A stretch of 31,811 bases of DNA, from UHGV virus genome UHGV-0116366, one strand, 5' to 3'. The stretch is from a virus. Made by a program: the position numbers and the translations under genes. Below the pieces are notes generated by a model. It was not told the DNA's origin. It saw nothing but the letters and a program-made list of their open reading frames with translations, and ran no database searches. This document shows, piece after piece, positions 200 to 15,809 of the stretch. The first letter of the stretch is position 1. Every line of letters starts with the position of its first letter.

Positions 200-1036
200 A
201 TGATTCGTCTTTTAATGCTGATTAGTGCAGTATTTGGGATCGGCTATGGTTACGCGATAACGCATGATGTTTGGCCTTTTGAAGGTATGGATGCGAACCA
301 GCGAGGAGTTTTTGGCGACTCTTGGGGCGCTTTTACCTCAATCTTTTCTGCTATGGGGTTTTGTGGGGTTTTATGGACGATAAAGCTGCAGATGGATGCA
401 ACAAAAAAAATAGAGGATGATTTTAGGAAAAGGGAAGAAGCTGAAAAAATTAGGGATTTTGAGAACTCCTTCTTTAATATGTTGAGTATATTGCAAACAT
501 TAATTAAAGATATGAGGGTTGAAGGCTCTTCCGGGAAGACTTTGGCAGAAGGGCGTCATGTTTTTCTTTATTTTTTCAGACGATTCAAAAAAGAAGTTAG
601 ACAAAAAAATGGAATGTTATTAGATTATGACTCGAGTGATGAATCTGAAATTAAAAAAGCATCATCGAGAATGTCTAATGAATATAGGTTTTATTTCAGG
701 AATAGAGCTCAAAATTTATCTCATTACTTCAGATATATCTATAATATGTTTAAAATAATCCACGAATCTGATTTGTCTAACGTTAACAAGAAAAAATACG
801 CAAACATTTTACGCGCTCAACTTTCTAATTATGAGTTGCTAATGCTGTTTTATAATGCCAATTTCGTTCATGGTCAGAAATTTAAAGTATATATGAGCTT
901 GTATGCGATTCTGGATAATCTGCCAGCAGAGAAGCTTATAAATAAAAAACATGTTGCATTCTATGATAAAGAAGCGTGGGGTGATAATCTTGATGCATTA
1001 CAGTATCACCCCAAGTTTTTTGATTATGCAGATTAA
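200..1036 (+). CDS. AT-rich moron encoding a membrane-anchored protein; possible abortive-infection/exclusion (Abi-like) protein
   Basis: 278-aa ORF with hydrophobic N-terminal segments (LLMLISAVFGIGYGYAI, FTSIFSAMGFCGVLWTI) and a Lys/Asn/Tyr/Phe-rich soluble domain. Codon composition is much more AT-rich than flanking phage genes. It lies between the attachment-site gene (icd) and int, where e14 carries lit. Functional call is from memory of Abi-like families and is not verified. Confidence 0.55.
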   Translation: MIRLLMLISAVFGIGYGYAITHDVWPFEGMDANQRGVFGDSWGAFTSIFSAMGFCGVLWTIKLQMDATKKIEDDFRKREEAEKIRDFENSFFNMLSILQTLIKDMRVEGSSGKTLAEGRHVFLYFFRRFKKEVRQKNGMLLDYDSSDESEIKKASSRMSNEYRFYFRNRAQNLSHYFRYIYNMFKIIHESDLSNVNKKKYANILRAQLSNYELLMLFYNANFVHGQKFKVYMSLYAILDNLPAEKLINKKHVAFYDKEAWGDNLDALQYHPKFFDYAD

Positions 1037-2163
1037 TTATTAATAATTTTTATCCAATCCTTGCCTCTATCATCATGGTATCTGGCTGTTTGCTGGGGAG
1101 ATTTATGCCCCAGCAGTTTTTGAGTATTTACTCCCTGGTCTTCATACAGACGTTCTGCCAGAGAGCGCTGCTCGTGAAAAGTTGCAGGCGTGCCCTCACC
1201 CCATTCAATCTCTGCTTTATCCCGTGCTTTGCTGAAATTCATCGTAATGGTGTTGGACTTCACCTGCGCACCGCGCTCCGCCTGCGACGTTGCCCGAAAG
1301 AAGTGGATCATATACGGGCTGACTGCATAATCCCGACATCTGGCAACAACATCCCGAAGACACCAACCTATAGCATTAAGTCGCAGAGAAAGAGGGATTG
1401 CGATTTTGCTCCCGGTTTTTTCCTGAATGACATGGAGATGATCATCCCAAATATCGCTAAATTTCATTCGCGAGATATCACCTAACCGCTGGCCAGTCAC
1501 CAGTGCTAACAGCATAGCATTCCCCATATACTGATGTTTCTTATCCGCGATATCGAAAATCTTCTGCCACTCGTCGAGGCTAAGTCGTTGTCTGGTAATC
1601 TTGCGCCTGGGCTGTTTAGTAGCAAGGGCAGGGTTGTGACCAGACGGCACTTCACCGTAGTGTTGGGCCTCTTTGAATACATCGATCAGAACTGAGCGAA
1701 CAACTTGCGCCATTCTTGGTTGGCCTGCAGATAGATACTCTTCAAGAATTTGAGCAATATCCCTGACATCAACAGAAGATATGAGCTTCATTCCCGCACG
1801 TTCCTTAAGTAGTGCAACTGGCTTGGCTTTTTGTTTATATGTATTCTCCTTGATATCACCTGAAGCGAATCTTTCCTCTTGAATTTTCCAGTATCGCTCA
1901 AGCCAGGTAATAGTCGTAATTGCTTTACCCTTGCTGGCAGCGATTCGATCGCTAATAGCCAGTACCTGTCTTGAACGCTGCTCAGCAAGTCTTGCGTTTG
2001 CCTCAGTAGCAATTGCTCTAGCCTCAGCTTCATCAGTACCCAGGCTGTGAAATTTCCCAGTCATAGGGTGCTTGTACCGCCAATACACTTTATTGACCTT
2101 ACGACTGTATAGTGGATAGAGGTTAGGTATTGATACATTATTTTTACGTGGTCTCGCAGCCAT
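1033..2163 (-). CDS. int: tyrosine integrase, lambda Int family
   Basis: C-terminus LLGHKSPQQTARYHDDRGKDWIKI closely resembles the lambda Int catalytic-tyrosine region (LLGHKSDTMASQYRDDRGREWDKI). The ORF is open to 2229, but the ATG at 2163 (MAARPRK...) gives a lambda-like ~20-nt overlap with xis. Confidence 0.9.
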   Translation of the reverse strand: MAARPRKNNVSIPNLYPLYSRKVNKVYWRYKHPMTGKFHSLGTDEAEARAIATEANARLAEQRSRQVLAISDRIAASKGKAITTITWLERYWKIQEERFASGDIKENTYKQKAKPVALLKERAGMKLISSVDVRDIAQILEEYLSAGQPRMAQVVRSVLIDVFKEAQHYGEVPSGHNPALATKQPRRKITRQRLSLDEWQKIFDIADKKHQYMGNAMLLALVTGQRLGDISRMKFSDIWDDHLHVIQEKTGSKIAIPLSLRLNAIGWCLRDVVARCRDYAVSPYMIHFFRATSQAERGAQVKSNTITMNFSKARDKAEIEWGEGTPATFHEQRSLAERLYEDQGVNTQKLLGHKSPQQTARYHDDRGKDWIKIINN

Positions 2164-2389
2164 CGCTGAGGATCCTTTGTAATTTTGGTGAATCAGATTT
2201 CTTGATAACCGGCGCAGCAAGTTCTCCAACCAATTCCGCGTCCTCCCTAACTCTCCAGAGCCTACCTTGCTTCATTGCTGGCGGAGAAAAGAGATTTTGC
2301 TTAGCGTAACGGCGCAATGTAGAGACGCTAGGTGGATTACTTCTGTATTTATCGGTTGCCCATTCTTCAAGAGTTAACATCTGAATCAT
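2144..2389 (-). CDS. xis: excisionase (Xis-like DNA-binding protein)
   Basis: 81-aa basic protein immediately upstream of and overlapping int; MIQMLTLEEWA...RYAKQNLFSPPAMKQGRLW resembles lambda Xis (MYLTLQEWNARQ...). GGAG RBS upstream. Confidence 0.7.
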   Translation of the reverse strand: MIQMLTLEEWATDKYRSNPPSVSTLRRYAKQNLFSPPAMKQGRLWRVREDAELVGELAAPVIKKSDSPKLQRILSDGCETT

Positions 2390-2968
2390 GCGTTATTCTC
2401 CATATAACCCAGCTGCACCCGGGTTTTAACATCAACTATTCGTATGGTTCTCCGCTGCCGTGTATACCGCTACTTTCAGCAGATTGAATCAGTTAACTTT
2501 CCCTACGACCCACGGCTTAGAAGTCCGTTGCTCTCTTTAAGCTAACATCGCAACTGGAAGCGCGCTCCGGTAGTTTTGGATTAACGACTGACCATAAAGG
2601 TTAAGGGACAGAACGCGCTTTCATGTTGAGCCCTGAAAAAGGCTGGCGGTTACCGGACAAACGGGAAAACACCGGGCCGCCAGAACAGGGAAGTACTTGT
2701 TATTGCTTTGGCCTGCTTTTAACCACATCAGGCGCGGTGGTAGGTATCTTCGGGCGGGGCGCTGGGGACCAACCAGCTACAACCCCTACGGTATTTACAC
2801 TCCACGCCGTGGGTTAACGGCTCCGTATCGTGGCTGAGTTTCTGTTGCTGGTGGTCAAGCCAGCTTCGCAACCCCTCCCGAAGACACCTGTCAGCGAATC
2901 ATCCGGTCATTCATATGCCACCGGCGGCTACTTCGTGGGCGTCCTGCCTGTTCGCTGTTGATGAATAA

Positions 2969-2997
2969 AATCTAACTTAACTTAGCTTTTAGATCAA
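2969..2997 (-). promoter_or_regulatory. PL-like leftward promoter with overlapping operator
   Basis: On the minus strand: TTGATC - 17 nt - TAGATT. The 14-bp near-palindrome CTAACTTAACTTAG (2973-2986) lies in the spacer and matches the operator consensus found at OR. Confidence 0.45.
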
Positions 2998-3051
2998 GAA
3001 AAAACACCAAACTATTCTTAGCTTGATGTTAAGAGGAAGATTAGAGGTGGG

Positions 3052-3678
3052 TTAAAGCTCGTACTGAACGCCTTTGACAACGCCGATGATCAGGCAATTA
3101 CCGTTAATTGAAATGTTTGGATAGCGTGGATTTAAGGGAACTAAGAACTTTTGAGGCCCATCGATGACAAGTTTTTTTACAGTAGCCTCGTTTGTCCCAT
3201 CAAGCCTGGCTACGACTATCTTTCCATGAAGTGGCTCTGCATCTGGATCTACTATGACTGTTGCCCCTTCAGGGATTGTCGGGAGGCCATTAGGGTTTGT
3301 CATCGAATCACCTTTAACCTCCAATGCAAAGGAGCTATCCCCTATGCGGAGTGATGTCTCTATCCACTTATCTACTTCGCTGAAAACTTCTGCTGCTTTA
3401 CATTCTGTAAACTGTCCAGCCTGAACCCAGGATATCACCGGAATCCTTCGCATCTTGGTTATCAGATTGCCTTCAAATTCAGTGCCATAAAGTATGTAAT
3501 CAATTGATGTGTTGAAATACTTTGCAAGTTTCGCAAGTGACTCGCCTCCTGGCACATTAACGTCTTTTTCCCAATACCCAACCGCCACATCACTAACACC
3601 GCAGAACTTACCCAGTTCTTTCTGCGAGGTTTTGGTTATGCGCCTGAGAGCTTTGATGCGCTGACCGACAGTTTCCAT
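3052..3678 (-). CDS. cI: CI-type phage repressor (N-terminal HTH_XRE, C-terminal S24 LexA-like peptidase)
   Basis: N-terminus QRIKALRRITKTSQKELGKFCGVSDVAVGYWEKDVNVP (HTH). C-terminal domain has GDSM (Ser nucleophile) and VKK (Lys) as in LexA/CI autopeptidases. Divergent from cro. Confidence 0.9.
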   Translation of the reverse strand: METVGQRIKALRRITKTSQKELGKFCGVSDVAVGYWEKDVNVPGGESLAKLAKYFNTSIDYILYGTEFEGNLITKMRRIPVISWVQAGQFTECKAAEVFSEVDKWIETSLRIGDSSFALEVKGDSMTNPNGLPTIPEGATVIVDPDAEPLHGKIVVARLDGTNEATVKKLVIDGPQKFLVPLNPRYPNISINGNCLIIGVVKGVQYEL

Positions 3679-3704
3679 TTGAACACCATAAATAAATTAA
3701 AAGG

Positions 3705-3767
3705 CTAAGCAATCTTAGTTTTTATTGACCAAAGTTAGATTGGTTATTAATATCTAATCAAACTTAG
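3705..3767. promoter_or_regulatory. OR-like operator cluster: CTAAGCAATCTTAG (3705-3718), CCAAAGTTAGATTGG (3729-3743), CTAATCAAACTTAG (3754-3767)
   Basis: Repeated 14-bp CTAAG-N4-CTTAG inverted-repeat sites in the cI-cro intergenic region, overlapping the PR -35/-10 and start site. Confidence 0.5.
3725..3753 (+). promoter_or_regulatory. PR-like rightward promoter for cro (TTGACC - 17 nt - TAATAT)
   Basis: Near-consensus sigma70 hexamers with 17-nt spacing, 28 nt upstream of the cro ATG. AGGAGG RBS at 3771-3776. Confidence 0.55.
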
Positions 3768-3780
3768 CTAAGGAGGCGTT

Positions 3781-4008
3781 ATGACAACCGATGATATTGA
3801 AAACTACTTCGGCAGTACTGAGAAGGTTGCCGAATTTTTTGGAATCACAAGCGAGGCTGTTTACCAGTGGCGTAATAGAACTGGTCGCCTTATCCCAAAA
3901 GGGCGTGCAGCTGAAGCAGCATATCGAACCGGGGGGAAATTGGTTTTTCATCCCGACCTTTACGAAAAGCGTAGCGATGCTTCAGTAAAACTCAAACCAC
4001 AGGAATAA
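3781..4008 (+). CDS. cro: Cro-like repressor
   Basis: 75-aa protein divergent from cI with a strong RBS; FGSTEKVAEFFGITSEAVYQWRN resembles Cro/YdaS-type HTH. Confidence 0.75.
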   Translation: MTTDDIENYFGSTEKVAEFFGITSEAVYQWRNRTGRLIPKGRAAEAAYRTGGKLVFHPDLYEKRSDASVKLKPQE

Positions 4009-4018
4009 GGGGGGAGCT

Positions 4019-4570
4019 GTGGGTAACGAACCTATTTGGAAAGTCGAACGTCAGCCAGCCTGGCTGGTGGCGGCGATAAAAAAAACGATCACCGATCTTC
4101 CTGGTGGTTATGCCGAGGCGGCGGAATGGTTGGGCGTGACAGAGAACGCATTGTTCAACCGCCTTCGTGTTGACGGCGACCAAATCTTCCCGCTGGGCTG
4201 GGCAATGGTTTTACAACGTGCTGGTGGTTCAACTCATATTGCTGATGCCGTTGCGCGCCATTCTCAGGGCGTATTTGTACCGCTGGCAGACGTTGATGAT
4301 CTGGATAACGCCGATATAAACCAGCGCCTGATGGAGTCCATTGAATGGATAGGTCGTCATTCTAATTTTGTACGTAAAGCCACGGCTGATGGGGTAATTG
4401 ACGCAGATGAGCGTGCTCAGATTGAGGAAAACAGCTATCAGGTTATCGCGAAGTTCCAGGAGCACGTAACGCTTCTTTATCGAGTTTTTTGTGTCGCTGA
4501 AAAGAGTGACGCCCGCGAGTGTGCAGCTCCGGGCGCCTTGGCGAACAACTCTTCGAGTATGGAGAAATAA
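4019..4570 (+). CDS. CII-like regulatory protein (phage 186 CP76 type)
   Basis: 183-aa ORF directly after cro, GTG start. Length and position match the e14 ymfL / CP76 family; call is by recollection of the family, not alignment. Confidence 0.55.
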   Translation: MGNEPIWKVERQPAWLVAAIKKTITDLPGGYAEAAEWLGVTENALFNRLRVDGDQIFPLGWAMVLQRAGGSTHIADAVARHSQGVFVPLADVDDLDNADINQRLMESIEWIGRHSNFVRKATADGVIDADERAQIEENSYQVIAKFQEHVTLLYRVFCVAEKSDARECAAPGALANNSSSMEK

Positions 4571-4742
4571 TCCGCATGAGCAGTTTAACGGCTTTTAACC
4601 GTCTACCGCAACTAAGGATGATCCCGGTTTCGGGTACTCCGTTGTTTCGGTATGAACGCAGATTATCAAACCGCTGGGTTCCGTGTAACCACAGTAGGGC
4701 GGTTTCAATTGTGGGGGTCTACAACCGGAGGGCAAAACGCCT

Positions 4743-4922
4743 GTGCGCGAACTTAACCGAAGGTTCAAAGACCACCGCGGAGTGCCAGTCCGTGTTATCC
4801 GCTGGGAGCCAGAAACACAGCGCGTTATCTATCTGCGTGATGGCTACCCACACGAATGCTTCAGCCCACTTGAGCATTTCAGGCAAAAGTTCAGGGAGAT
4901 AACGGACGATCATGAGCACTAA
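4743..4922 (+). CDS. small hypothetical protein (frame uncertain)
   Basis: Frame 0 reads VRELNRRFKDHRGVPVRVIRWEPETQRVIYLRDGYPHECFSPLEHFRQKFREITDDHEH, which is protein-like. GTG start preceded by GGAGG 11 nt upstream. The overlapping 127-aa ORF at 4519-4902 has a Ser/Ala/Arg/Cys-rich composition and looks wrong-frame. Confidence 0.35.
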   Translation: MRELNRRFKDHRGVPVRVIRWEPETQRVIYLRDGYPHECFSPLEHFRQKFREITDDHEH

Positions 4923-5769
4923 ATTAACCGGCTACGTATGGGATGGTTGCGCGGCGTCGGGCATGAAGTTGTCTAGTGTCGCGATCATGGCTCGCCTTGC
5001 TGATTTCAGCAGCGATGAGGGGGTGTGCTGGCCGTCTATTGAAACTATTGCTCGCCAGCTTGGCGCAGGGCCGAGCACTATCAGAACGGCAATCGCTAAG
5101 CTTGAAAAAGATGGCTGGCTCACGCGTACACAGCGCCGTAATGGTAACCGTAATGCGTCGAACGTTTACCGCCTGAATGTGGCGAAACTTCAGGCTGCCG
5201 CATTTTCTCAACTGTCAGATTCTGACACGTCAAAATCTGACGCATCAAAATTTGACACCTCAAAAACTGACCCGTCGAAATCTGGCAAAATCGGCGGTTT
5301 TGACCCGTCAGAATCTGGCGGGGATCCGTCAGTAAAATCAACACAAGATCCACAAGTAACTTCAAAACCCTCTTGTCCGGTTGCGGCGCAACCAGACCCT
5401 GAAGTTGTGATTACCGACCAGGCGATTTTGGTTCTGACCCATTTGAACCAGATCAGCGGATCCCGGTATCAGAAATCCAAAACATCCCTGGAGAATATCC
5501 GCGCCCGACTGCGTGAGGGATACAGCGTTGCAGACCTGCAACTGGTTATCGACCTGAAGCATGAGCACTGGCACGAGAACGACGAGCAATACCAGTACAT
5601 GCGGCCGGAAACGCTTTTTGGTCCGAAGAAATTCGAGAGCTATCTGCAAAGCGCTACCCGCTGGGATCAGAAGGGACGGCCTAAACGCGCTGATTGGGGT
5701 GCGAAAAAGCGCGATGTGATGGCTTTTGGTCCGGTTGATACAACGATTCCTGCGGGGTTCAGAGGATGA
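4912..5769 (+). CDS. phage replication initiator (N-terminal HTH, C-terminal conserved phage replication domain)
   Basis: N-terminal winged-HTH-like region (SIETIARQLGAGPSTIRTAIAKLEKDGWLTR). C-terminal block (LENIRARLREGYSVADLQLVIDLKHEHWHENDEQYQYMRPETLFGPKKFESYLQ) is typical of lambdoid replication-organiser proteins. Iterons lie inside the gene. Confidence 0.8.
   Translation: MSTKLTGYVWDGCAASGMKLSSVAIMARLADFSSDEGVCWPSIETIARQLGAGPSTIRTAIAKLEKDGWLTRTQRRNGNRNASNVYRLNVAKLQAAAFSQLSDSDTSKSDASKFDTSKTDPSKSGKIGGFDPSESGGDPSVKSTQDPQVTSKPSCPVAAQPDPEVVITDQAILVLTHLNQISGSRYQKSKTSLENIRARLREGYSVADLQLVIDLKHEHWHENDEQYQYMRPETLFGPKKFESYLQSATRWDQKGRPKRADWGAKKRDVMAFGPVDTTIPAGFRG
5215..5335. repeat. origin-like iteron array inside the replication gene (about six copies of GTCARAWTCTGAC-like 12-13-mers)
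   Basis: tcagattctgac / gtcaaaatctgac / atcaaaatttgac / ctcaaaaactgac / gtcgaaatctggc / gtcagaatctggc are readable in tandem; they encode the low-complexity SDSDTSKSDASKFDTSKTDPSKSG linker. Confidence 0.6.
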
Positions 5770-6647
5770 CGTTAAACAAATATTGCCAGGCGCTGGCGGC
5801 ATTACGTAGCCAACCAGCCCACGAATTGAAAGAAGTTGGCGATCAGTGGCGGACGCCGGATCTGCTTTTTTGGGGGATCAACGCGCTATTTGGTCCATTA
5901 GTTCTGGACTTGTTTGCAGACGACGACAACGCGAAGTGCCCGGCATGGTACACCGCCGAAGATAACGCGCTGACACAGAACTGGTCTGAACGTCTGGATG
6001 AACTGGGCGGAGCGGCGTTTGCCAACCCTCCATATAGCCGCTCGCAGTATCACGACAGGCAGGCGATCACGGGTATGACACACATCATGAATCACACCAT
6101 GGACATGCGTGAAAGAGGTGGTCGCTATATTTACCTGGTGAAGTCTGCCACAAGTGAAACATGGTGGCCGGAAGATGCCGATCACATCATGTTTATTCGT
6201 GGTCGTATTGGGTTCGATCTGCCTGTGTGGTTTGTACCTGCTGACGAAAAACAGAAACCCACCAGCGCGTTTTTTGCCGGTGCCATAGCTGTATTCGATA
6301 AGTCATGGCGTGGTGAGCGGTTCAGCTATATCAACCGCACTGAGTTGGAGGCAAAAGGTCGGGCATTTATGGCGCTGGCTCAATTCGCTGTTGGTAAAGA
6401 GCAAACAATTGCAACGCTGGCAGCCCAGGAACCAGCAGCACCACCAAAAACTGAGTCACGAATCTGGCCTCTCGAAGTTGGTCTGGTGTTTAACCAAGTG
6501 GAAGGCGCTGATGTATTGAGCGAGGCCCAGCAGAACAAACTGAAAGCCAACATCAATCAACTCTGGCTGGAGCGGACGGCCACCAGCGAAATTATCGCAA
6601 TTGCGCGTGGCCTTGTTGGCAGCATGCAGGGGGTAACCCATGCGTGA
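5766..6647 (+). CDS. DNA N6-adenine methyltransferase (phage Dam-like) with C-terminal extension
   Basis: FANPPYS motif (NPPY catalytic motif of amino-MTases) in the N-terminal ~170 aa; C-terminal ~120 aa of unknown function. Confidence 0.75.
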   Translation: MTLNKYCQALAALRSQPAHELKEVGDQWRTPDLLFWGINALFGPLVLDLFADDDNAKCPAWYTAEDNALTQNWSERLDELGGAAFANPPYSRSQYHDRQAITGMTHIMNHTMDMRERGGRYIYLVKSATSETWWPEDADHIMFIRGRIGFDLPVWFVPADEKQKPTSAFFAGAIAVFDKSWRGERFSYINRTELEAKGRAFMALAQFAVGKEQTIATLAAQEPAAPPKTESRIWPLEVGLVFNQVEGADVLSEAQQNKLKANINQLWLERTATSEIIAIARGLVGSMQGVTHA

Positions 6648-8637
6648 GATTATCGTTGATAACTTTGCTGGTGGCGGTGGCGCATCAACGGGTATTGAAC
6701 TGGCAATCGGGCGCAGCGTGGATATTGCGATCAACCACGACGAAAACGCCATTGCGATGCACAAGACGAACCACCCGGACACACTGCATTATTGTGAATC
6801 CGTATTTGACGTGGATCCGGTAGCCGCCACCGGAGGTAATCCTGTCGGACTGGCATGGTTTAGCCCGGACTGCCGACACTTCTCGAAGGCAAAAGGCGCA
6901 AAGCCTGTGAAAAAAGAGATACGCGGTCTGGCCTGGATTGTTCTGCGTTGGGCACTGGCGAAGCGACCGCGCGTGATGATGCTGGAGAACGTGGAAGAGT
7001 TCAAAACGTGGGGACCGTTAATTGACATCCCGCCTAAACCTGATTTGCCGGAAGCCCTTTTGGCGGATTTTATTGGCCCGGTTTACCCTGGAAATAGTCG
7101 CCCAGACCCTGCCCGCACTGGAGAAACATTCAATGCATTTGTCGGCATGCTGTCCACTGGCATTCCTGCTGATCACCCGGCACTGGCTGAGGTTTGTGAG
7201 TTTCTGTCTATTGTAAGAGGTAGCGAGCAGGCGAAAAAGCTGGTGGATGGGCTCGGATATGATGTTGATTATCGTGAACTGCGCGCGTGTGATTACGGCG
7301 CGCCGACGATCCGCAAACGCTTCTTCATGGTTATGCGCTGCGATGGCTGCCCAATCCAGTGGCCTACTGTTACCCATGGGGATCCTAAGTCTCTGGAGGT
7401 GCAGAGCGGCAGGCTGATGCCATGGCGTACCGCTGCGGAATGTATCGACTGGAATGTTCCGGCCCTGTCCATCTTCGACCGCAAAAAACCGCTGGCGGAG
7501 AACACTTTGAAGCGGATCGCGCGCGGCATACAGCGCTTTGTTATCGAAAGTGCGTCGCCGTTTATCGTGAAGTGCAACCACACCACGACCAAAGGAAAAT
7601 ACGACTGTTTCCGTGGGCAGGAGTTGAGTGAGCCGCTGCAGACCATTACGAAAACCCATGGCTACGCGTTAGCCGTGCCACACCTGACAAAATTCCGCAC
7701 TGGCGCAACCGGGCAGCCCGTTACCGAGCCTGTCCCGACGGTAACCGCTGGCACATCAAAACGTCCAGGTGGGAATGGGCATGCACTCGGGATTGTTGAG
7801 GCTGCACTGACACCATTCCTGGCGGGTAATGGTGGTAGTGAATACCAGGCTAAACCACGCCCGCTGGATAAACCTGCTCATACCATTCTGAAGCAATCCC
7901 GCGCCTGTCTTGTTGCGCCAGTGATAGCCCGCCAGTTTGGGGCCAGCGTCGGCCATCGGGCAGACGAACCGAGCGCAACCATCACCGCTGGCGGTGGCGG
8001 TAAATCTCAACTGGTAACGCCTACGCTGATCCAGATGGGTTATGGCGAACGTCCAGGACAAGAACCGCGTGTGCTGCGACTGGATAACCCGCTGGGGACC
8101 GTTACTGCAGGTGGAAATAAATTCGCGACGGTGAGCGCGTTCCTGGCAAAACACTACGGCGGTAACTATACGGGGCCGGGTGTCAGTATGGATGAACCCG
8201 CGCACTCAGTGACCACTGTCGACCATCATGCAGTAGTTGCCTCTCATCTGGTGAAACTGCGAGGAACATGCCGCGACGGGCAGTGCCTTGATGTGCCCAT
8301 GCCAACAATCACCGCTGGTGGCCAACACGTGGGTGAGGTACGCACATTTCTCGAGACGTATTGCGGGGAAAGTGACGATGAATGGCTGGTAACGATCGAT
8401 GGGGTTAAATACCAGATCGTTGATATCGGAATGCGCATGTTGCAGCCGCATGAACTCTACAAAGCGCAGGGCTTCCCCGATGGATACGTTATTGATCAGG
8501 ACTACCGTGGAAATCGCTATGCAAAAGATAAGCAGGTAGCCCGCTGCGGTAATGCGGTACCACCACCATTCGCCAGGGCGCTGGTGGAGGCAAATCTTCC
8601 GGAACTGTGTGCAGTGCAACAGCAGGAGGTGGCATGA
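6640..8637 (+). CDS. DNA (cytosine-5) methyltransferase with unusually long variable region, possibly multispecific
   Basis: Motif I FAGGGG, PC-like motif FSPDCRHFS, motif VI MMLENV, motif VIII YGAPTIRKRFFMV, C-terminal CGNAVPPP. About 360 aa separate motif VIII from motif IX/X and contain four copies of a (T/V)(I/V)TAG(G/T) motif. Confidence 0.85.
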   Translation: MREIIVDNFAGGGGASTGIELAIGRSVDIAINHDENAIAMHKTNHPDTLHYCESVFDVDPVAATGGNPVGLAWFSPDCRHFSKAKGAKPVKKEIRGLAWIVLRWALAKRPRVMMLENVEEFKTWGPLIDIPPKPDLPEALLADFIGPVYPGNSRPDPARTGETFNAFVGMLSTGIPADHPALAEVCEFLSIVRGSEQAKKLVDGLGYDVDYRELRACDYGAPTIRKRFFMVMRCDGCPIQWPTVTHGDPKSLEVQSGRLMPWRTAAECIDWNVPALSIFDRKKPLAENTLKRIARGIQRFVIESASPFIVKCNHTTTKGKYDCFRGQELSEPLQTITKTHGYALAVPHLTKFRTGATGQPVTEPVPTVTAGTSKRPGGNGHALGIVEAALTPFLAGNGGSEYQAKPRPLDKPAHTILKQSRACLVAPVIARQFGASVGHRADEPSATITAGGGGKSQLVTPTLIQMGYGERPGQEPRVLRLDNPLGTVTAGGNKFATVSAFLAKHYGGNYTGPGVSMDEPAHSVTTVDHHAVVASHLVKLRGTCRDGQCLDVPMPTITAGGQHVGEVRTFLETYCGESDDEWLVTIDGVKYQIVDIGMRMLQPHELYKAQGFPDGYVIDQDYRGNRYAKDKQVARCGNAVPPPFARALVEANLPELCAVQQQEVA

Positions 8638-11089: not shown

Positions 11090-11137
11090 TTATTTTTGAT
11101 AGAGGCATTGTTGTTAGTTAATGTCTCTATCTTTACT

Positions 11138-11383
11138 CTAACTAAGGCCAAGGTATGCCAATACTACAGCTGTAATAATGCCAATAACAATACTTTTTAT
11201 GTTTTCTAAAATGAAATTAATAATCCTGCGCCATATAGTAATTGGATTTTCTTTCTTATATATCAATTTGTTAGTCGGCGCTCCAGACTTGTTTTTTTCA
11301 GCGAAAATATCATCTGCACCATCAATGTCAGCAAGTGTGCTTGAAGATGTTTCATTTTCATTAAGGTGTATTTTTTTTTGCAT
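11138..11383 (-). CDS. hypothetical membrane-anchored small protein (AT-rich moron)
   Basis: 81-aa ORF antisense to the late operon with a C-terminal hydrophobic helix (IVIGIITAVVLAYLGL); strongly AT-rich codons. Confidence 0.45.
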   Translation of the reverse strand: MQKKIHLNENETSSSTLADIDGADDIFAEKNKSGAPTNKLIYKKENPITIWRRIINFILENIKSIVIGIITAVVLAYLGLS

Positions 11384-11412
11384 TCCTTATGACAAACATT
11401 GGTCTATTATAT

Positions 11413-11703
11413 TTATCCATACAATACACTCCTTATAAATATACTGCATTGTGAAGGTTTGAAATTTGGTATGTTTTTTGTTACTCGTCGCATGCTGTGT
11501 GCATTAAATTTATCAATGTTTTTATTGGCCTTTATGGTTTTGCAATTGTCAATTATATAAGGTGTCTCACTACTGTTGGTTGTATTTCCATTTAAAGTTA
11601 TGCTTTCAACATTATTTGCGATGAGAAATGGAGTATTCAGGTTTGAGGTATTATTATTAAAAACTACGTGACCACAGTTTTGTACGTAAAATATTGCATG
11701 CAT
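11413..11703 (-). CDS. hypothetical Asn/Thr-rich protein (AT-rich moron)
   Basis: 96-aa ORF upstream of and co-oriented with 11138-11383. A sigma70-like promoter on the minus strand (TTCTCA - 17 nt - TATACT) lies just upstream at about 11720-11750. Weak RBS. Confidence 0.35.
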   Translation of the reverse strand: MHAIFYVQNCGHVVFNNNTSNLNTPFLIANNVESITLNGNTTNSSETPYIIDNCKTIKANKNIDKFNAHSMRRVTKNIPNFKPSQCSIFIRSVLYG

Positions 11704-11812
11704 ATTAGTAACTCACGAAAGCATTAGTATACAAAGCAAGCATAACATTGAGAACACTCTACAGATTTTTAAGGAAAAAACAATCACGCGGTCCGCATTA
11801 CTTGGTGTATTG

Positions 11813-11829
11813 TGTTAAGAGTGGTCACT
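11813..11829. repeat. copy 1 of 17-bp motif TGTTAAGAGTGGTCACT
   Basis: 16/17 identical to 15348-15364 (TGTTAAGAGTGGTTACT); both lie just upstream of rightward late-gene blocks after antisense moron insertions. Confidence 0.5.
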
Positions 11830-11855
11830 TAGACGCGAACTTAAATATTTCAGAA

Positions 11856-11881
11856 CCTCGCCAATCGGCGGGGTTTTTTTC
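11856..11881 (+). terminator. rho-independent terminator (tR'-like) upstream of the lysis cassette
   Basis: cctcgccaatcggcgggg hairpin followed by tttttttc; lies downstream of Q and upstream of the holin, as expected for a Q-modifiable terminator. Confidence 0.5.
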
Positions 11882-11989
11882 ATTTCAGGCCCAGGTTAAA
11901 AACTGCAGATTAACCGTGATCACATGAGCTTGCGGCCTGAACCCTTTCCCCTCGTTTCTGAGAGGATTCACAGCAATTGAGGGGGACAG

Positions 11990-12376
11990 ATGTCCGAACC
12001 AATAACCGGCACAGGTTTAGCTGGTGGCGCTTTAACTGGGGCGAGTGTTTACGGACTGTTAACCGGAACAGATTATGGTGTGGTGTTTGGCGCGTTTGCC
12101 GGGGCTGTATTTTACATTGCAACGGCTGCGGACCTTAGCGCAGCACGTCGGCTGGCGTATTTTGTCGTGTCCTACATTGCCGGGATCATCTGCTCAGGGC
12201 TGGTTGGTTCAAAGCTGGCTGACTGGACTGGTTACAGTGATAAGCCTCTGGACGCTATCGGAGCCGTAATCGTTTCTGCTTTAGCTGTCAAAATCCTGAC
12301 GTTCCTGAATAACCAGGATGTCGGCTCGCTGGTGGCGCTGATAACGCGCCGGGGAGGTTCAGGTGGTACTAAATGA
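11990..12376 (+). CDS. holin-like membrane protein
   Basis: 128-aa Gly/Ala-rich protein with several hydrophobic helices, first gene of the lysis cassette. Confidence 0.55.
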   Translation: MSEPITGTGLAGGALTGASVYGLLTGTDYGVVFGAFAGAVFYIATAADLSAARRLAYFVVSYIAGIICSGLVGSKLADWTGYSDKPLDAIGAVIVSALAVKILTFLNNQDVGSLVALITRRGGSGGTK

Positions 12377-12644
12377 CCCATCGGCAACAATCAACGCGCT
12401 GCTTTGCGCTGGGGTAGTGTTGACCCTGATGTTTTACCGTCGTGGTGATTCCCGACATCGACCATGGGTGTCTCGCTTAGCGTGGCTGCTTACGGTCATC
12501 TACAGCGCTGTACCACTGGCCTATCTGTGCGGTATCTACCCTTATTCATCGTGGGCCACTATCGGGGCCAACATTATTTTCCTGTCTGTGCTGGTCTCCG
12601 TCAGAGGCAATGTGGCGCGGCTTATTGATGCTGTTTACAAATAA
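12363..12644 (+). CDS. holin/antiholin-like membrane protein
   Basis: 93-aa protein with 2-3 TM segments and charged C-terminus; GTG start preceded by GGGGAGG; overlaps the upstream gene. Confidence 0.5.
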   Translation: MVLNDPSATINALLCAGVVLTLMFYRRGDSRHRPWVSRLAWLLTVIYSAVPLAYLCGIYPYSSWATIGANIIFLSVLVSVRGNVARLIDAVYK

Positions 12645-12799: not shown

Positions 12800-13414
12800 A
12801 TGAACCAATCACAATTTCAGCAGGCGGCTGGTATCAGCGCCAGGCTTTCTGCACGCTGGTTTCCGCACATTGATGCGGCAATGAAAGAGTTTGGTATTAC
12901 AGCAGTTAATGATCAGGCCATGTTCATTGCGCAAGTCGGGCATGAGTCTGCTGGCTTTACCTCGCTGGCAGAAAGTTTTAACTACTCGGTTGAAGGGCTG
13001 AAGAAAACCTTCGGTAAGCGCCTGACGCCGTATCAGTGTGAAATGCTGGGGCGTGTTGATGGTAAGCAGGTGGCCCACCAGCCGCAAATAGCCAATCTGG
13101 TTTACGGTGACCGCATGGGGAATAACAGCCAGGGGGACGGCTGGAAATATCGCGGTCGTGGCCTGCTTCAAATCACCGGCCGTGAGAACTACACCAAATG
13201 CGGTGCGGCACTGAAACTTGACCTTGTCAGTACGCCAGAATTGCTAACGCAGGAACGACATGCGGCCCGTTCGGCGGCGTGGTACTTCACGTTACGCGGT
13301 TGCCTGATGTATTCGGGTGACGTGGAACGTGTAACGCAGATTATTAACGGCGGGCAGAACGGCATTAAAGACCGCCGTGAACGTTACGCCAAAGCAAAAG
13401 CCGCACTGGTATGA
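12800..13414 (+). CDS. endolysin, glycoside hydrolase family 19 (chitinase-like)
   Basis: MFIAQVGHESAGF...YRGRGLLQITGRENY...INGG is the GH19 phage endolysin signature. Confidence 0.85.
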   Translation: MNQSQFQQAAGISARLSARWFPHIDAAMKEFGITAVNDQAMFIAQVGHESAGFTSLAESFNYSVEGLKKTFGKRLTPYQCEMLGRVDGKQVAHQPQIANLVYGDRMGNNSQGDGWKYRGRGLLQITGRENYTKCGAALKLDLVSTPELLTQERHAARSAAWYFTLRGCLMYSGDVERVTQIINGGQNGIKDRRERYAKAKAALV

Positions 13415-13691: not shown

Positions 13692-13860
13692 AGTAACGGA
13701 CACGGCCTGTGACTGGGTAAGCATCATCTACCTCACTGAGCACGATATTGCTGTGCTGGATAAGCAGACTAAGAAAGACATTCTAGCGCATAACAAAGCA
13801 TGGCAGTCAAATTGTGAAAATGCGACTGTGAGCCTTAATCCTATAATGACCACGAAATAG
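13612..13860 (+). CDS. o-spanin (Rz1-like lipoprotein), overlapping Rz out of frame
   Basis: Signal peptide with lipobox LTASC; starts inside Rz in another frame and extends beyond it. Confidence 0.65.
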   Translation: MYSRLLIIFLMTMLTASCAKTLPAKPEVTDTACDWVSIIYLTEHDIAVLDKQTKKDILAHNKAWQSNCENATVSLNPIMTTK

Positions 13861-13899
13861 AAAATTGCTATGTTGTATCTTTCAAATGAGGGGAGCAGC

Positions 13900-14136
13900 A
13901 TGAGCCAAGTTACATTAACTATTAGTGAACTTTATGAAATTGCAGAGCAGTATTATGGAAACGAACTCTACCGTATAGAAGTTTGCAACATTGGAATTAG
14001 GTTCGTGTGTTTGGATCGTAGCAAGGGCAATGAAGAGTACTCTGCATTTTTCCAGACTCCTTTAAAAAATCTGTCTATAAACTCACTTAGAGGCTTTCTC
14101 GATGCGGAAACACAGGAGGAAAGCATAAGCAATTGA
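13900..14136 (+). CDS. hypothetical small protein (AT-rich moron)
   Basis: Start at 13900 preferred (GAGGGGAG RBS); product MSQVTLTISELYEIAEQYYGNELYRIEV... has no recognisable family. Confidence 0.45.
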   Translation: MSQVTLTISELYEIAEQYYGNELYRIEVCNIGIRFVCLDRSKGNEEYSAFFQTPLKNLSINSLRGFLDAETQEESISN

Positions 14137-14296
14137 AGGGCAGGTCACCTTTGATGGTGTCATTTGCTTGAATTGTTTTAAAAATGCACAAGCCCGTTAC
14201 AGTGTGAATGTGGTATGCATTACTGCGGGTATTTGCTGAGTGCCTGTGTTAATGTTGCTGCTGTAATAATGAGATGGTTTGTAAAAAAGGAAGGGA

Positions 14297-14611
14297 TTGA
14301 AAATGATTTTCCAAAATATTCAGACGTACTACATTACCAGCGATAAACATAAGGTTATTCCGCGATATGTCCGATATGACGTAATTAAATTGGATGATAA
14401 TGCTTACATAGTAAATGTTATTGATGACCAACAAAGAGGTATCTCGCCCCCTTATAGTCTTGTTATGTTAGATAAAATTACAATTACTAAAGCTGAGTAT
14501 CTTGATAAGTACCAAATTGGTTCCTTTACTGGGGTTAGAACGCAAAGTCCTCCAACCTTTGAAGGATATATTACAGAACATCTTCAAGAGCATCGTAATC
14601 AGTTAGATTAA
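14297..14611 (+). CDS. hypothetical protein (AT-rich moron)
   Basis: 104-aa ORF with AAGGAAGGG RBS; followed by a terminator hairpin. Confidence 0.5.
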   Translation: MKMIFQNIQTYYITSDKHKVIPRYVRYDVIKLDDNAYIVNVIDDQQRGISPPYSLVMLDKITITKAEYLDKYQIGSFTGVRTQSPPTFEGYITEHLQEHRNQLD

Positions 14612-14624
14612 GTTCCGTATCAAC

Positions 14625-14668
14625 ATAAGCCACTGTTTTTCTATGGTGGCTTATGTGTGTTTTTATTT
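14625..14668 (+). terminator. terminator hairpin between convergent moron genes
   Basis: ataagccac ... gtggcttat inverted repeat followed by gtgtgttttta. Confidence 0.5.
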
Positions 14669-14678
14669 AGCTGTGCAT

Positions 14679-15047
14679 TCAAAGAAATATTTTATTGATT
14701 AATGCTTCTATAGATGGCCAGATGGATAAGGTATTTGCACCGATGCTAGTAAGTTTTTCAAGAAGGTCAACTTTTGACTCTTTCGTCGGCTCAATTTCAC
14801 TAATGGTAGCAAGTAATCGGTCATAACCTTTTTGACCTAACTCTTTTTCGCATACACTTTTGTTACTCTTGATTAAAAGTTGAGCTTGATAAATTAGTTC
14901 AAGCGTCTCCCTATTGCCGATCAGATTCTCATTAACTTTTGTATTAGGAGAATTCACTACTTCAATTGCTGTATCTATAACATCAACAGTGTTGTTATTC
15001 ACTTCGCAACCAATTGAGTCTTTAATAACAATACCTTTGAGAGCCAT
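14679..15047 (-). CDS. hypothetical protein, possible C-terminal part of a split HEAT-repeat protein
   Basis: ATG at 15047 preceded by GAGGT RBS; lies 9-20 nt downstream of the HEAT-repeat ORF in a different frame. Confidence 0.45.
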   Translation of the reverse strand: MALKGIVIKDSIGCEVNNNTVDVIDTAIEVVNSPNTKVNENLIGNRETLELIYQAQLLIKSNKSVCEKELGQKGYDRLLATISEIEPTKESKVDLLEKLTSIGANTLSIWPSIEALINKIFL

Positions 15048-15067
15048 GGCATACCTCACTAAAGATT

Positions 15068-15274
15068 TTATTTTCGACGATATAAACGACCAAGAGCAGT
15101 GACCGCAGCGACTTGAACATCAGAATTTGAGTCCTTCGTCATAGTTAACAACCGCGAAGCAATTTCACTAGTTGCTGTGGCACCCTCTCCGAGCGCTAAA
15201 GCAGCGGCAGTTTTAACTTTTACGTCACTATCTTTTGTCATGATTAACAAACGATTAGCAATTTCACTTAGCAT
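15068..15274 (-). CDS. small HEAT-like repeat protein
   Basis: Two ~30-aa internal repeats (EIANRLLIMTKDSDVKVKTAAALALGEG / EIASRLLTMTKDSNSDVQVAAVTALGRL) matching the D-x-x-V-(R/K)-x-x-A-A-x-A-L-G pattern of PBS-lyase HEAT-like repeats; strong GAGGAGGG RBS. Confidence 0.55.
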   Translation of the reverse strand: MLSEIANRLLIMTKDSDVKVKTAAALALGEGATATSEIASRLLTMTKDSNSDVQVAAVTALGRLYRRK

Positions 15275-15347
15275 GATCCCTCCTCATATAAATATCTCTA
15301 CACCATATGGCAACATATTTTGGTTAGCAATACATTGTTTTCAAACC

Positions 15348-15364
15348 TGTTAAGAGTGGTTACT
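15348..15364. repeat. copy 2 of 17-bp motif TGTTAAGAGTGGTTACT
   Basis: See 11813-11829. Confidence 0.5.
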
Positions 15365-15458
15365 GAGGAACTACCAAATTTACTTCGTACTCGAAGTGTC
15401 TTTAACTAATGTTTACGCGCATTAGACAATGTGCCACCGTAAAAGTGAGAGGACTTCA

Positions 15459-15809
15459 ATGCCTGAAAGAACACCTAAAGCCTGCCGTGTTCGAGGCTGC
15501 CGAGGCACGACTACTGATCCATCAGGCTATTGTGAAAGCCATAAAAGTGAAGGGTGGAAATCCTACAAACCGGGGAAATCCCGGCATCAGCGTGGTTATG
15601 GGACAAAGTGGGAAGTCATACGCGCTCGCATACTGAAGCGTGACAAAGCTCTATGCCAGAACCATCTACGTGAGGGAGTTGTGAAACAGGCTTCATGTGT
15701 GGACCACATCAAAGCGAAGGCCCACGGCGGTACTGATGAAGACAGCAACCTTGAAAGCCTGTGCTGGTCGTGTCATGCAGCGAAGACCGCGCGTGAGCGG
15801 CTCAAGTGA
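15459..15809 (+). CDS. HNH endonuclease (packaging-associated)
   Basis: Cys-rich zinc-finger/HNH pattern (CRVRGC...CESH...H...CW.CH) in the usual position upstream of terS in HK97-like cos phages; the ORF is open from 15429. Confidence 0.8.
   Translation: MPERTPKACRVRGCRGTTTDPSGYCESHKSEGWKSYKPGKSRHQRGYGTKWEVIRARILKRDKALCQNHLREGVVKQASCVDHIKAKAHGGTDEDSNLESLCWSCHAAKTARERLK

Follow-up and report, generated by a model that had tools for sequence, protein, structure and literature searches.

The virus genome UHGV-0116366 was analysed as one stretch of 31,811 nucleotides (nt), which is called the window below and is a lambdoid prophage. Between its gene for the antiterminator Q and its first holin gene lies an island of 684 nt (positions 11090-11773) with a G+C content of 31.0%, against 51.8% for the backbone, and with two small open reading frames (ORFs) on the minus strand. 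The question raised by this locus is whether these ORFs are genes and, if so, what they do in such a place. An earlier note, made from the letters alone, had described an AT-rich moron of two genes, one for an Asn-rich protein of 96 residues and one for a protein of 81 residues with a C-terminal transmembrane (TM) stretch; both frames are present, and the difference in composition holds. The genes are named orfA and orfB here. They are almost certainly a real, conserved coding pair, and it is highly probable that they are cargo of a hotspot between the stop codon of Q and the late promoter pR'. As an element it belongs to a known kind (prophage moron or hotspot cargo), and its proteins form a very rare, uncharacterised family.

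Conservation and selection

Homologues were sought among 5.8 billion proteins and, with hidden Markov model (HMM) profiles, among 1.84 billion representatives. The former search gave four clusters for orfA (53-99% identity) and five for orfB (65-92% identity, annotated as hypothetical proteins of Citrobacter). The profile search added only about eight true relatives, all small; its matches to zinc-finger and repeat proteins were spurious. The traceable distant relatives are proteins of E. coli, Leclercia and Enterobacter with 25-33% identity to orfA and an identical genomic position, each followed by an overlapping gene for 89-95 residues with an orfB-like N-terminal motif and a C-terminal hydrophobic anchor. 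orfA and the overlapping orfB are intact and antisense in every relative examined, from 99% identity down to about 29%, and the hosts of the cassette are prophages of Citrobacter, E. coli, Enterobacter and Leclercia.

The pair always stands directly after a Q gene of the window's type (PF06530), which encodes 120 residues wherever Q is intact. The exception is a degraded remnant in E. coli, with a Q call of 138 residues (68% identical) in contig L025 and no Q called in L024. In this remnant (locus coordinates 2100-4600) a holin gene abuts the gene for a tail-fibre C-terminus and Q is truncated or missing; a pair of the orfA/orfB type is still intact. The lysis cassettes that follow the pair vary (holin_8/holin_3_7/GH19 or holin_2/lysozyme). 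In one E. coli prophage (L020/L021, locus coordinates 4619-6713) two Q-type antiterminators stand in tandem: a PF06323 protein of 218 residues, then DUF968, then a PF06530 Q of 120 residues with a cassette of the orfAB type.

Amino-acid identity to the window is 87-99% for Q (intact loci of 120 residues), 29-99% for orfA and 33-94% for orfB. The ratio of nonsynonymous to synonymous substitution rates (dN/dS) is 0.12-0.46 for orfA, 0.16-0.51 for orfB, 0.02-0.28 for Q and up to 0.09 for the holin. Synonymous sites are saturated between clades in Q (pS 0.77) and in the cassette alike while dN/dS of the cassette is low, and the association with Q is therefore old. By these comparisons the pair appears as a long-standing companion of this Q type that has diverged together with it under purifying but relaxed selection. 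This co-divergence rules out a recent one-off insertion. Hypervariability or diversifying selection was also ruled out, because the synonymous sites of Q are equally saturated and dN/dS of the cassette is below 1.

That the island is decaying or non-functional DNA with chance ORFs in AT-rich sequence could be argued from the frameshift of the second ORF in the window, from the lack of a known domain and from a promoter match at chance level. For the family this proposal is effectively refuted and hardly credible. The homologues keep the order of the genes, and across four genera and at identities as low as about 29% the frames stay open at equal lengths, with the overlap and the Shine-Dalgarno-like motifs retained; dN/dS is below 1; and ORFs of such lengths are rare in 2000 shuffles of the island (at least 96 residues in 0.55%, at least 81 residues in 1.9%). 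The ORFs are real genes, as the earlier note had assumed.

Relatives were few in nucleotide space as well. The island DNA was compared with 50,697 phage records, in near and distant modes, and with 5,426 complete E. coli genomes, and only the right-hand promoter block matched. The E. coli orfA protein had no match in the phage records, neither the Citrobacter-type cassette nor the two E. coli-type cassettes were found at megablast level in the complete E. coli genomes, and a profile scan of genome contigs with the orfA alignment gave no relatives.

Gene structure and frameshift

The ORF of 81 residues (11383..11138, minus strand) is the remnant of a frameshifted orfB. The TM anchor ascribed to it is present, but the extent of the gene was misjudged: the true gene has 93 residues and starts at 11420. 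The orfB relatives P0005-P0009 all have 93 residues and the N-terminus MDKYNRPMFVIRNAKK-IHLNENE, and in the window the upstream frame (11420..11361) gives a peptide of 19 residues followed by a stop, MDKYNRPMFVIRNAKKNTP*. orfA and orfB overlap by 8 nt, from the ATG at 11420 to the orfA stop (ATGGATAA), and the Shine-Dalgarno sequence AAGGAG lies inside orfA, 8 nt upstream of this ATG; the two genes are therefore translationally coupled.

The orfB frame of the window is broken because a tract of nine A (A9) stands in place of A8. A8 is present in L009-L012, L032 and L001-L004, and the tract is interrupted in L013-L015. L032, 96% identical to the window, has A8 and an intact orfB. A9 occurs also in L031 and L033/L034, metagenome contigs that are 99.9-100% identical to the window and come from at least two independent samples; orfB is therefore truly disrupted in the window's lineage. 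There is very little doubt that the frameshift is real, and A9 is a circulating pseudogenised allele, not an assembly error. Phase variation at the tract found no support, since one clade has an interrupted tract and A9 is confined to one near-clonal lineage. The residual ATG at 11383 has an AAGGA just 1 nt away, and with this spacing efficient expression of the 81-residue form appears unlikely. In the window's lineage orfB is inactivated, or at least N-terminally crippled, and the cassette is probably not fully functional here. The message of the window's own copy is more modest for this reason, its cassette being partly broken.

Position relative to the late promoter

The earlier note had the two genes transcribed against the late operon. 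This was not borne out, as a conserved promoter/terminator block (about 11775-11884) lies downstream of the cassette. The Q of the window matches PF06530 (1.6e-53) and PHROG 79 (2.5e-44) and, distantly, the Q21 structures 6P18/6JNX (E 2.3e-4). In the canonical order of the Q21 family the Q gene is followed by pR', a sigma-dependent pause element or SDPE, a terminator and the late genes (10.1101/651190). Because of this order the segment 11775-11824 is assigned, by analogy, as the putative pR' unit. With the block downstream of it, the cassette would lie upstream of pR' and converge on Q rather than on the late operon.

In all relatives the block (about 11775-11884) shows stronger conservation than the cassette. 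It is also found downstream of unrelated cargo in mEp390, vB_EcoS-716R3 and the cdtI phage, and in IMG/VR loci, empty sites among them. Klebsiella phage ST13-OXA48phi12.2 has it directly behind Q, and mEp390 has it behind an unrelated antisense gene. The terminator of the block is conserved in Klebsiella phage ST13-OXA48phi12.2 and mEp390 and is the probable tR', read through by Q-modified polymerase. A candidate Q-binding element or SDPE is the direct repeat ACTTAGA / ACTTAAA, which stands after the -10-like elements and before the tR' hairpin. The palindrome ACGCGGTCCGCAT with the hexamer and TGTTAAGAGTGG, at a fixed offset of 26 nt, is unlike a -35 hexamer or the direct-repeat Q-binding element of Q21. 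As this arrangement accompanies all cargo types and is present in empty sites too, it is part of the late-promoter unit of this Q subgroup, and on the same ground a role of the palindrome as a cassette-specific operator was ruled out. A summary of the features is shown in Table 1.

Table 1. Location of the cassette, its flanks and the prophage landmarks in the window.
Feature	Position	Strand	Remarks
Integrase gene	1033-2229	-	Landmark of lambdoid prophage
CI-like S24 repressor gene	3052-3678	-	Landmark of lambdoid prophage
Antiterminator Q gene, 120 residues	10727..11089	+	Q21/933W family; left flank of cargo slot
Terminator-like hairpin, 13 bp	11098..11131	.	Convergent gap, Q stop to orfB stop
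orfB, tail-anchored membrane protein gene, 93 residues	11138..11420	-	Disrupted here; homologues of 93 residues
A9 homopolymer (T9 on + strand)	11371..11379	-	+1 frameshift against A8 of intact relatives
orfA, 96 residues	11703..11413	-	Soluble, Asn-rich (17 Asn, 8 Thr, 8 Ser)
Candidate sigma-70 promoter TTCTCA-17-TATACT, uncertain	11726..11754	-	9/12 match; 22 nt upstream of orfA ATG
Start of putative late-promoter unit	11775..11824	+	Right flank of slot; conserved in all cassette loci
A-tract	11775-11780	+	Within late-promoter unit
Invariant palindrome ACGCGGTCCGCAT	11786-11798	+	Within late-promoter unit
TAnnnT hexamer TATTGT	11808-11813	+	Within late-promoter unit
TGTTAAGAGTGG	11813-11824	+	Within late-promoter unit
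Direct repeat ACTTAGA / ACTTAAA, 12 nt apart	11827-11833 and 11839-11845		Conserved in relatives
Intrinsic terminator, 11-bp G+C-rich stem and U7	11852..11884	+	Terminator scan; fold -17 kcal/mol, z -5.2
Two holin-family genes, first late genes	11990-12376 and 12363-12644	+	PF16931 4.2e-35 and PF05449 3.6e-20
GH19 endolysin gene	12800-13414		Landmark
Terminase	from about 15935		Landmark

The signals of the cassette itself are less clear. The motif TTCTCA-17-TATACT, reported earlier as a decent promoter, does exist, but it is of chance level and not conserved. Five promoter-type sites with 9/12 matches were counted in the region, versus 4.3 +/- 1.9 in shuffles. The motif is kept in the closest relatives only; its -10 element is not conserved in L013 and L003, and the distant clade has instead an extended -10 (TGnTATGAT) next to the palindrome. 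Promoter candidates are found in every relative, differing in position and at chance level. The hairpin between the two stop codons was flagged by the terminator scan of the plus strand and is conserved in relatives, its minus-strand copy being without a U-tract; its RNA folds at -17.2 kcal/mol (z -5.1) on the plus strand and at -11.4 kcal/mol (z -3.6) on the minus strand.

The slot and its cargoes

For 80 IMG/VR contigs (L037-L116) with a Q at least 80% identical to that of the window, the spacing between Q stop and palindrome was surveyed. It is 25 nt in three of them (L063, L066 and L080), which are empty, and 566-2751 nt in the other 77; the 25 nt are counted from the computed end of the Q alignment and include 6 nt of Q codons, TTG TAA. 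Klebsiella phage ST13-OXA48phi12.2 is also empty, with the conserved block about 28 nt past the Q stop. In all loci where the pattern matched (68 of the 80), a TGnTA...TGG motif stands 26 nt beyond the palindrome. The 77 inserts form 23 DNA clusters and about 14 unrelated families at the protein level. They have a G+C content of 31-43%, almost all of their ORFs are antisense, and each has its own hairpin beside Q. The orfAB cassette occupies a single locus of the 80 (L099), as an insert of 697 nt with the same length as in the window.

The other cargoes were matched with PADLOC models, scored on cluster representatives. They include a KAP NTPase (PDC-S20, 1.4e-175, six loci), a three-gene set (PDC-S42, 1.1e-32, nine loci), an HNH nuclease (PDC-M68A, 7.5e-27, three loci), a TIR-TM protein (PDLC03016, 1.6e-57 as scored on the mEp390 protein, four loci plus mEp390) and an NYN nuclease (weak match, three loci). 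The TIR-TM clusters of IMG/VR are 56-65% identical to the mEp390 protein. A set of a 147-residue protein and a DUF6731 protein occupies 19 loci and is present also in phages cdtI and vB_EcoS-716R3, a protein of 336 residues occupies 14 loci, and a pair of 184 and 367 residues is common to SfIV. Several of the slot cargoes are two-gene sets of a small TM protein and a larger protein of no assigned function.

A moron beside Q, as had been proposed, is what the locus holds: the cassette is inserted between elements that are adjacent in related phages, its composition is distinct from the backbone, and related phages with near-identical Q are empty or carry other antisense cargo. As in a defence hotspot, the slot has conserved flanks, many alternative cargoes and PADLOC matches to defence candidates. 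The likening to the stx site was right in that both are cargo sites by Q, and wrong as to the sub-site, stx being in sense orientation and downstream of pR'. No description of the slot or of the family was found in a targeted literature search, which does not show that the slot is undescribed.

By this survey the short interval from Q to the late promoter acts as a hotspot for cargo in which candidate defence genes abound. Its flanks are sharp, with the Q stop codon to the left and the A-tract plus the invariant palindrome CGCGGTCCGCA to the right, and are a simple handle for new candidate systems in enterobacterial prophages. With about 14 families in 80 loci, most of them uncharacterised, the slot could be mined like the P2/P4 hotspots.

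A position next to Q and the holin genes raises the question whether the cassette regulates the life cycle of the phage, the convergent transcript, the proteins or both tuning Q or lysis. Antisense read-through into Q could damp premature late expression, like lambda paQ, or orfB could adjust the action of the neighbouring holins. A strict tie to a single Q subtype across genera and the convergent orientation are consistent with such a role, as are the gap between orfB and Q, which holds just the hairpin without a minus-strand U-tract, and the adjacency of a membrane protein to holin genes. The slot is, however, empty or otherwise filled next to Q proteins that are 80-95% identical, so that Q can work without the cassette. 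The pair stands before two different lysis cassettes (holin_8/GH19 and holin_2/lysozyme), a lineage with a broken orfB persists, and a role of the RNA alone leaves the selection at the protein level unexplained. This regulation is considered quite unlikely.

In three Citrobacter contigs (L001, L002 and L005; about 4900-5520 in L001) two extra genes, for 152 residues (on the cassette strand) and 89 residues, lie between the terminator block and holin_2, neither with a match in Pfam or PADLOC. They mark a second position for cargo, downstream of tR'.

Protein features

Residues 22-65 of orfA and 4-46 of orfB are 37% identical (hhalign probability 88%, E 2.8e-6 with widened alignments; E 4.4e-5 with narrow alignments; pairwise BLASTP E 0.003). 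As judged by these alignments, the two proteins are paralogues. Within orfA a periodicity of about 22 residues, h-x-N-C/N-x-x-h-x-h-N-x-N, occurs three times. The self-alignment score is 59 versus 29 +/- 6 in shuffles, and the sum over the orfA family is 377 versus 267 +/- 17, with a weak signal in distant members. The only hydrophobic segment of orfB lies at the very C-terminus (Kyte-Doolittle mean over 19 residues 2.24, residues 74-92 of the repaired form of 93 residues) with K/R-rich sequence on the N-terminal side, which implies a tail-anchored protein with a predicted cytoplasmic N-terminus. This topology is kept in distant relatives.

Homology and structure searches, suggested in the earlier note, brought conserved relatives but no match to a known family or fold. 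The best E-values for orfA and orfB in Pfam and PHROG are 0.08-0.4, short of the cut-offs, and neither protein matches a holin family of Pfam. The AlphaFold2 model of orfA has three long strands and two helices; in that of orfB the TM helix alone is confident. A beta-solenoid fold for orfA was dropped, as the models are of low confidence and the repeat signal alone is supported.

A host-directed factor of lysogenic conversion that affects fitness, envelope or virulence and has no part in phage-phage conflict, like the morons of the bor, lom and nmpC type, would share the moron architecture and the AT-rich composition of the pair. Morons beside Q include porins and toxins. NmpC is listed as an expressed moron (PMC9928086). 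orfA and orfB have neither signal peptide nor lipobox, however, and almost all of their mass is cytoplasmic; the annotatable neighbours in the slot are defence-type nuclease, TIR and NTPase proteins, not virulence factors. A conversion factor is rather improbable.

Proposed function

The island is proposed to be a self-contained moron cassette in the variable slot between the Q stop codon and the late-promoter/terminator unit of Q. orfA would be a soluble protein of about three beta-rich repeats of some 22 residues followed by C-terminal helices, and orfB would consist of a short domain at its N-terminus, homologous to repeats 2-3 of orfA, then a basic linker and the C-terminal membrane anchor. 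Because the cassette points away from pR' and towards Q, its promoter could be active in the lysogen with no transcription running on into the late genes, and from this layout expression in the lysogen is plausible. Nearly all slot cargo would be antisense for the reason that this orientation spares the late genes. The proposed role is that of a prophage accessory function at the inner membrane, which would protect the lysogen from other phages by exclusion or abortive infection. From location, architecture, relaxed evolution and sporadic inactivation, such a lysogen-expressed role is given nearly an even chance. More speculatively, orfA may bind the homologous cytoplasmic domain of orfB and so control a membrane-acting effector. 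We infer both the effector role of orfB and its interaction with orfA from sequence, and the specific mechanism, regulation of orfB by orfA, is regarded as doubtful.

The anti-phage reading is favoured by the defence-type neighbours in the slot (TIR-TM, PDC-S20/KAP, PDC-S42, PDC-M68A/HNH and the weak NYN match) and by an AbiC-like gene elsewhere in the prophage of the window. Several points weigh against it. Most of the about 14 slot families are themselves uncharacterised, the PDC models are candidates that have not been validated, and guilt by location is indirect. orfA and orfB match no characterised defence, exclusion or toxin family in PADLOC v2, Pfam, PHROG, NCBIfam and PDB; their AlphaFold2 models, from shallow alignments, are poor (pLDDT 47 for orfA and 60 for orfB), and a Foldseek search of PDB with them gave nothing below E = 3.7. 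The family is very rare, with one of 80 related IMG/VR loci, and the persistence of a broken orfB in a circulating lineage makes any benefit dispensable. No cassette promoter is demonstrably conserved among the cassette relatives, and AT-rich DNA is often silenced by H-NS in enterics, so that expression is not assured. That orfA and orfB are an undescribed two-protein anti-phage system, and the junction from the Q stop to pR' an unexploited defence hotspot of lambdoid prophages, is offered as a tentative suggestion.

The same architecture would suit a toxin-antitoxin or addiction module, in which orfB were a small membrane toxin and orfA its paralogous antidote, stabilising the prophage and not acting against phages. 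The two genes are small, overlapping and translationally coupled, one product being soluble and the other membrane-anchored, and the domain common to both suggests direct binding. Loss of orfB with orfA intact is tolerated, as expected for a toxic orfB, and this tolerance argues against orfB as an antidote needed against orfA. On the other hand, there is no similarity to toxin-antitoxin families in Pfam, NCBIfam and PADLOC, and the first place of the presumed antidote in the gene order is compatible, not diagnostic. Such a module is unlikely, and the reading overlaps abortive-infection defence instead of excluding it. If the cassette protects lysogens, as in the anti-phage reading, it would be a very small two-protein system of unusual design, with paralogous soluble and tail-anchored partners, each below 100 residues and with no known domain.

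Comparison with known systems

The nearest counterparts are the cassettes of mEp390 (gene 047, TIR-TM), cdtI, vB_EcoS-716R3 and SfIV. They occupy the same slot, after the stop codon of a Q that is 83-91% identical, and like orfAB they are antisense and of low G+C content, with a hairpin by Q, and stand before the palindrome and the TGTTAAGAGTGG block. Their cargo is unrelated to orfA and orfB (a TIR-TM protein of 272 residues; 147 residues plus a DUF6731 protein of 313 residues; 108 plus 356 residues).

RexA and RexB of lambda, the model for the proposed mechanism, are likewise a two-gene prophage unit of one soluble and one membrane protein, and other exclusion pairs expressed in the lysogen are comparable. 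The rexAB genes are expressed independently of the lytic programme, lie in the immunity region and are co-transcribed with cI; RexB is polytopic and much larger. orfA and orfB differ from them in having no sequence similarity to RexA/RexB and in being paralogues of under 100 residues with a single tail anchor.

Tai/Ati of phi80 (PMC11364771) is another case of an antisense immune gene in a lambdoid phage near Q-controlled transcription, and its antisense orientation has been argued to couple expression in the lysogen to shut-off in the lytic cycle (PMC11364771). The tai gene sits upstream of the module for packaging, within the Q-controlled region, and its protein is unrelated to orfA and orfB, whereas the orfAB cassette is placed upstream of pR' and would be opposed only by early transcription through Q. 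The stx phages also carry cargo with a Q of the PF06530 family, 74% identical in L035. Their stx, tRNA and methylase genes are in sense orientation, downstream of pR'/tR' and Q-dependent; orfAB is antisense, upstream of pR' and, by its position, would be Q-independent. The reading of Q-adjacent cargo is refined in this respect, antisense cargo upstream of pR' being taken as independent of Q, unlike downstream cargo of the stx type. The P2/P4 defence hotspots (PMC9122126) have in common with the slot a fixed position between genes, conserved flanks and many alternative, mostly defence-type cargoes; the phage group and the flanks (here the Q stop and the pR' unit) are different.

Other features of the window

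No tRNAs were found in the window, and a search with Rfam gave sub-threshold hits only, driven by terminators. At the end of the prophage, adjoining the integrase gene, an ORF of 278 residues (200-1036, plus strand) has a putative abortive-infection domain (PF16872 putAbiC, 2.3e-18). It is located in an island of 35-39% G+C within the AT-rich stretch 1-1200, and is a second, recognisable defence-type moron in the prophage of the window. The Rz-like genes are separated from the HNH/terminase genes by a third AT-rich island (13800-15600, 35-42% G+C). None of its ORFs 13870-14136 (plus strand), 14297-14611 (plus strand) and 14679-15059 (minus strand) has a Pfam match, and the island may be another cargo slot.

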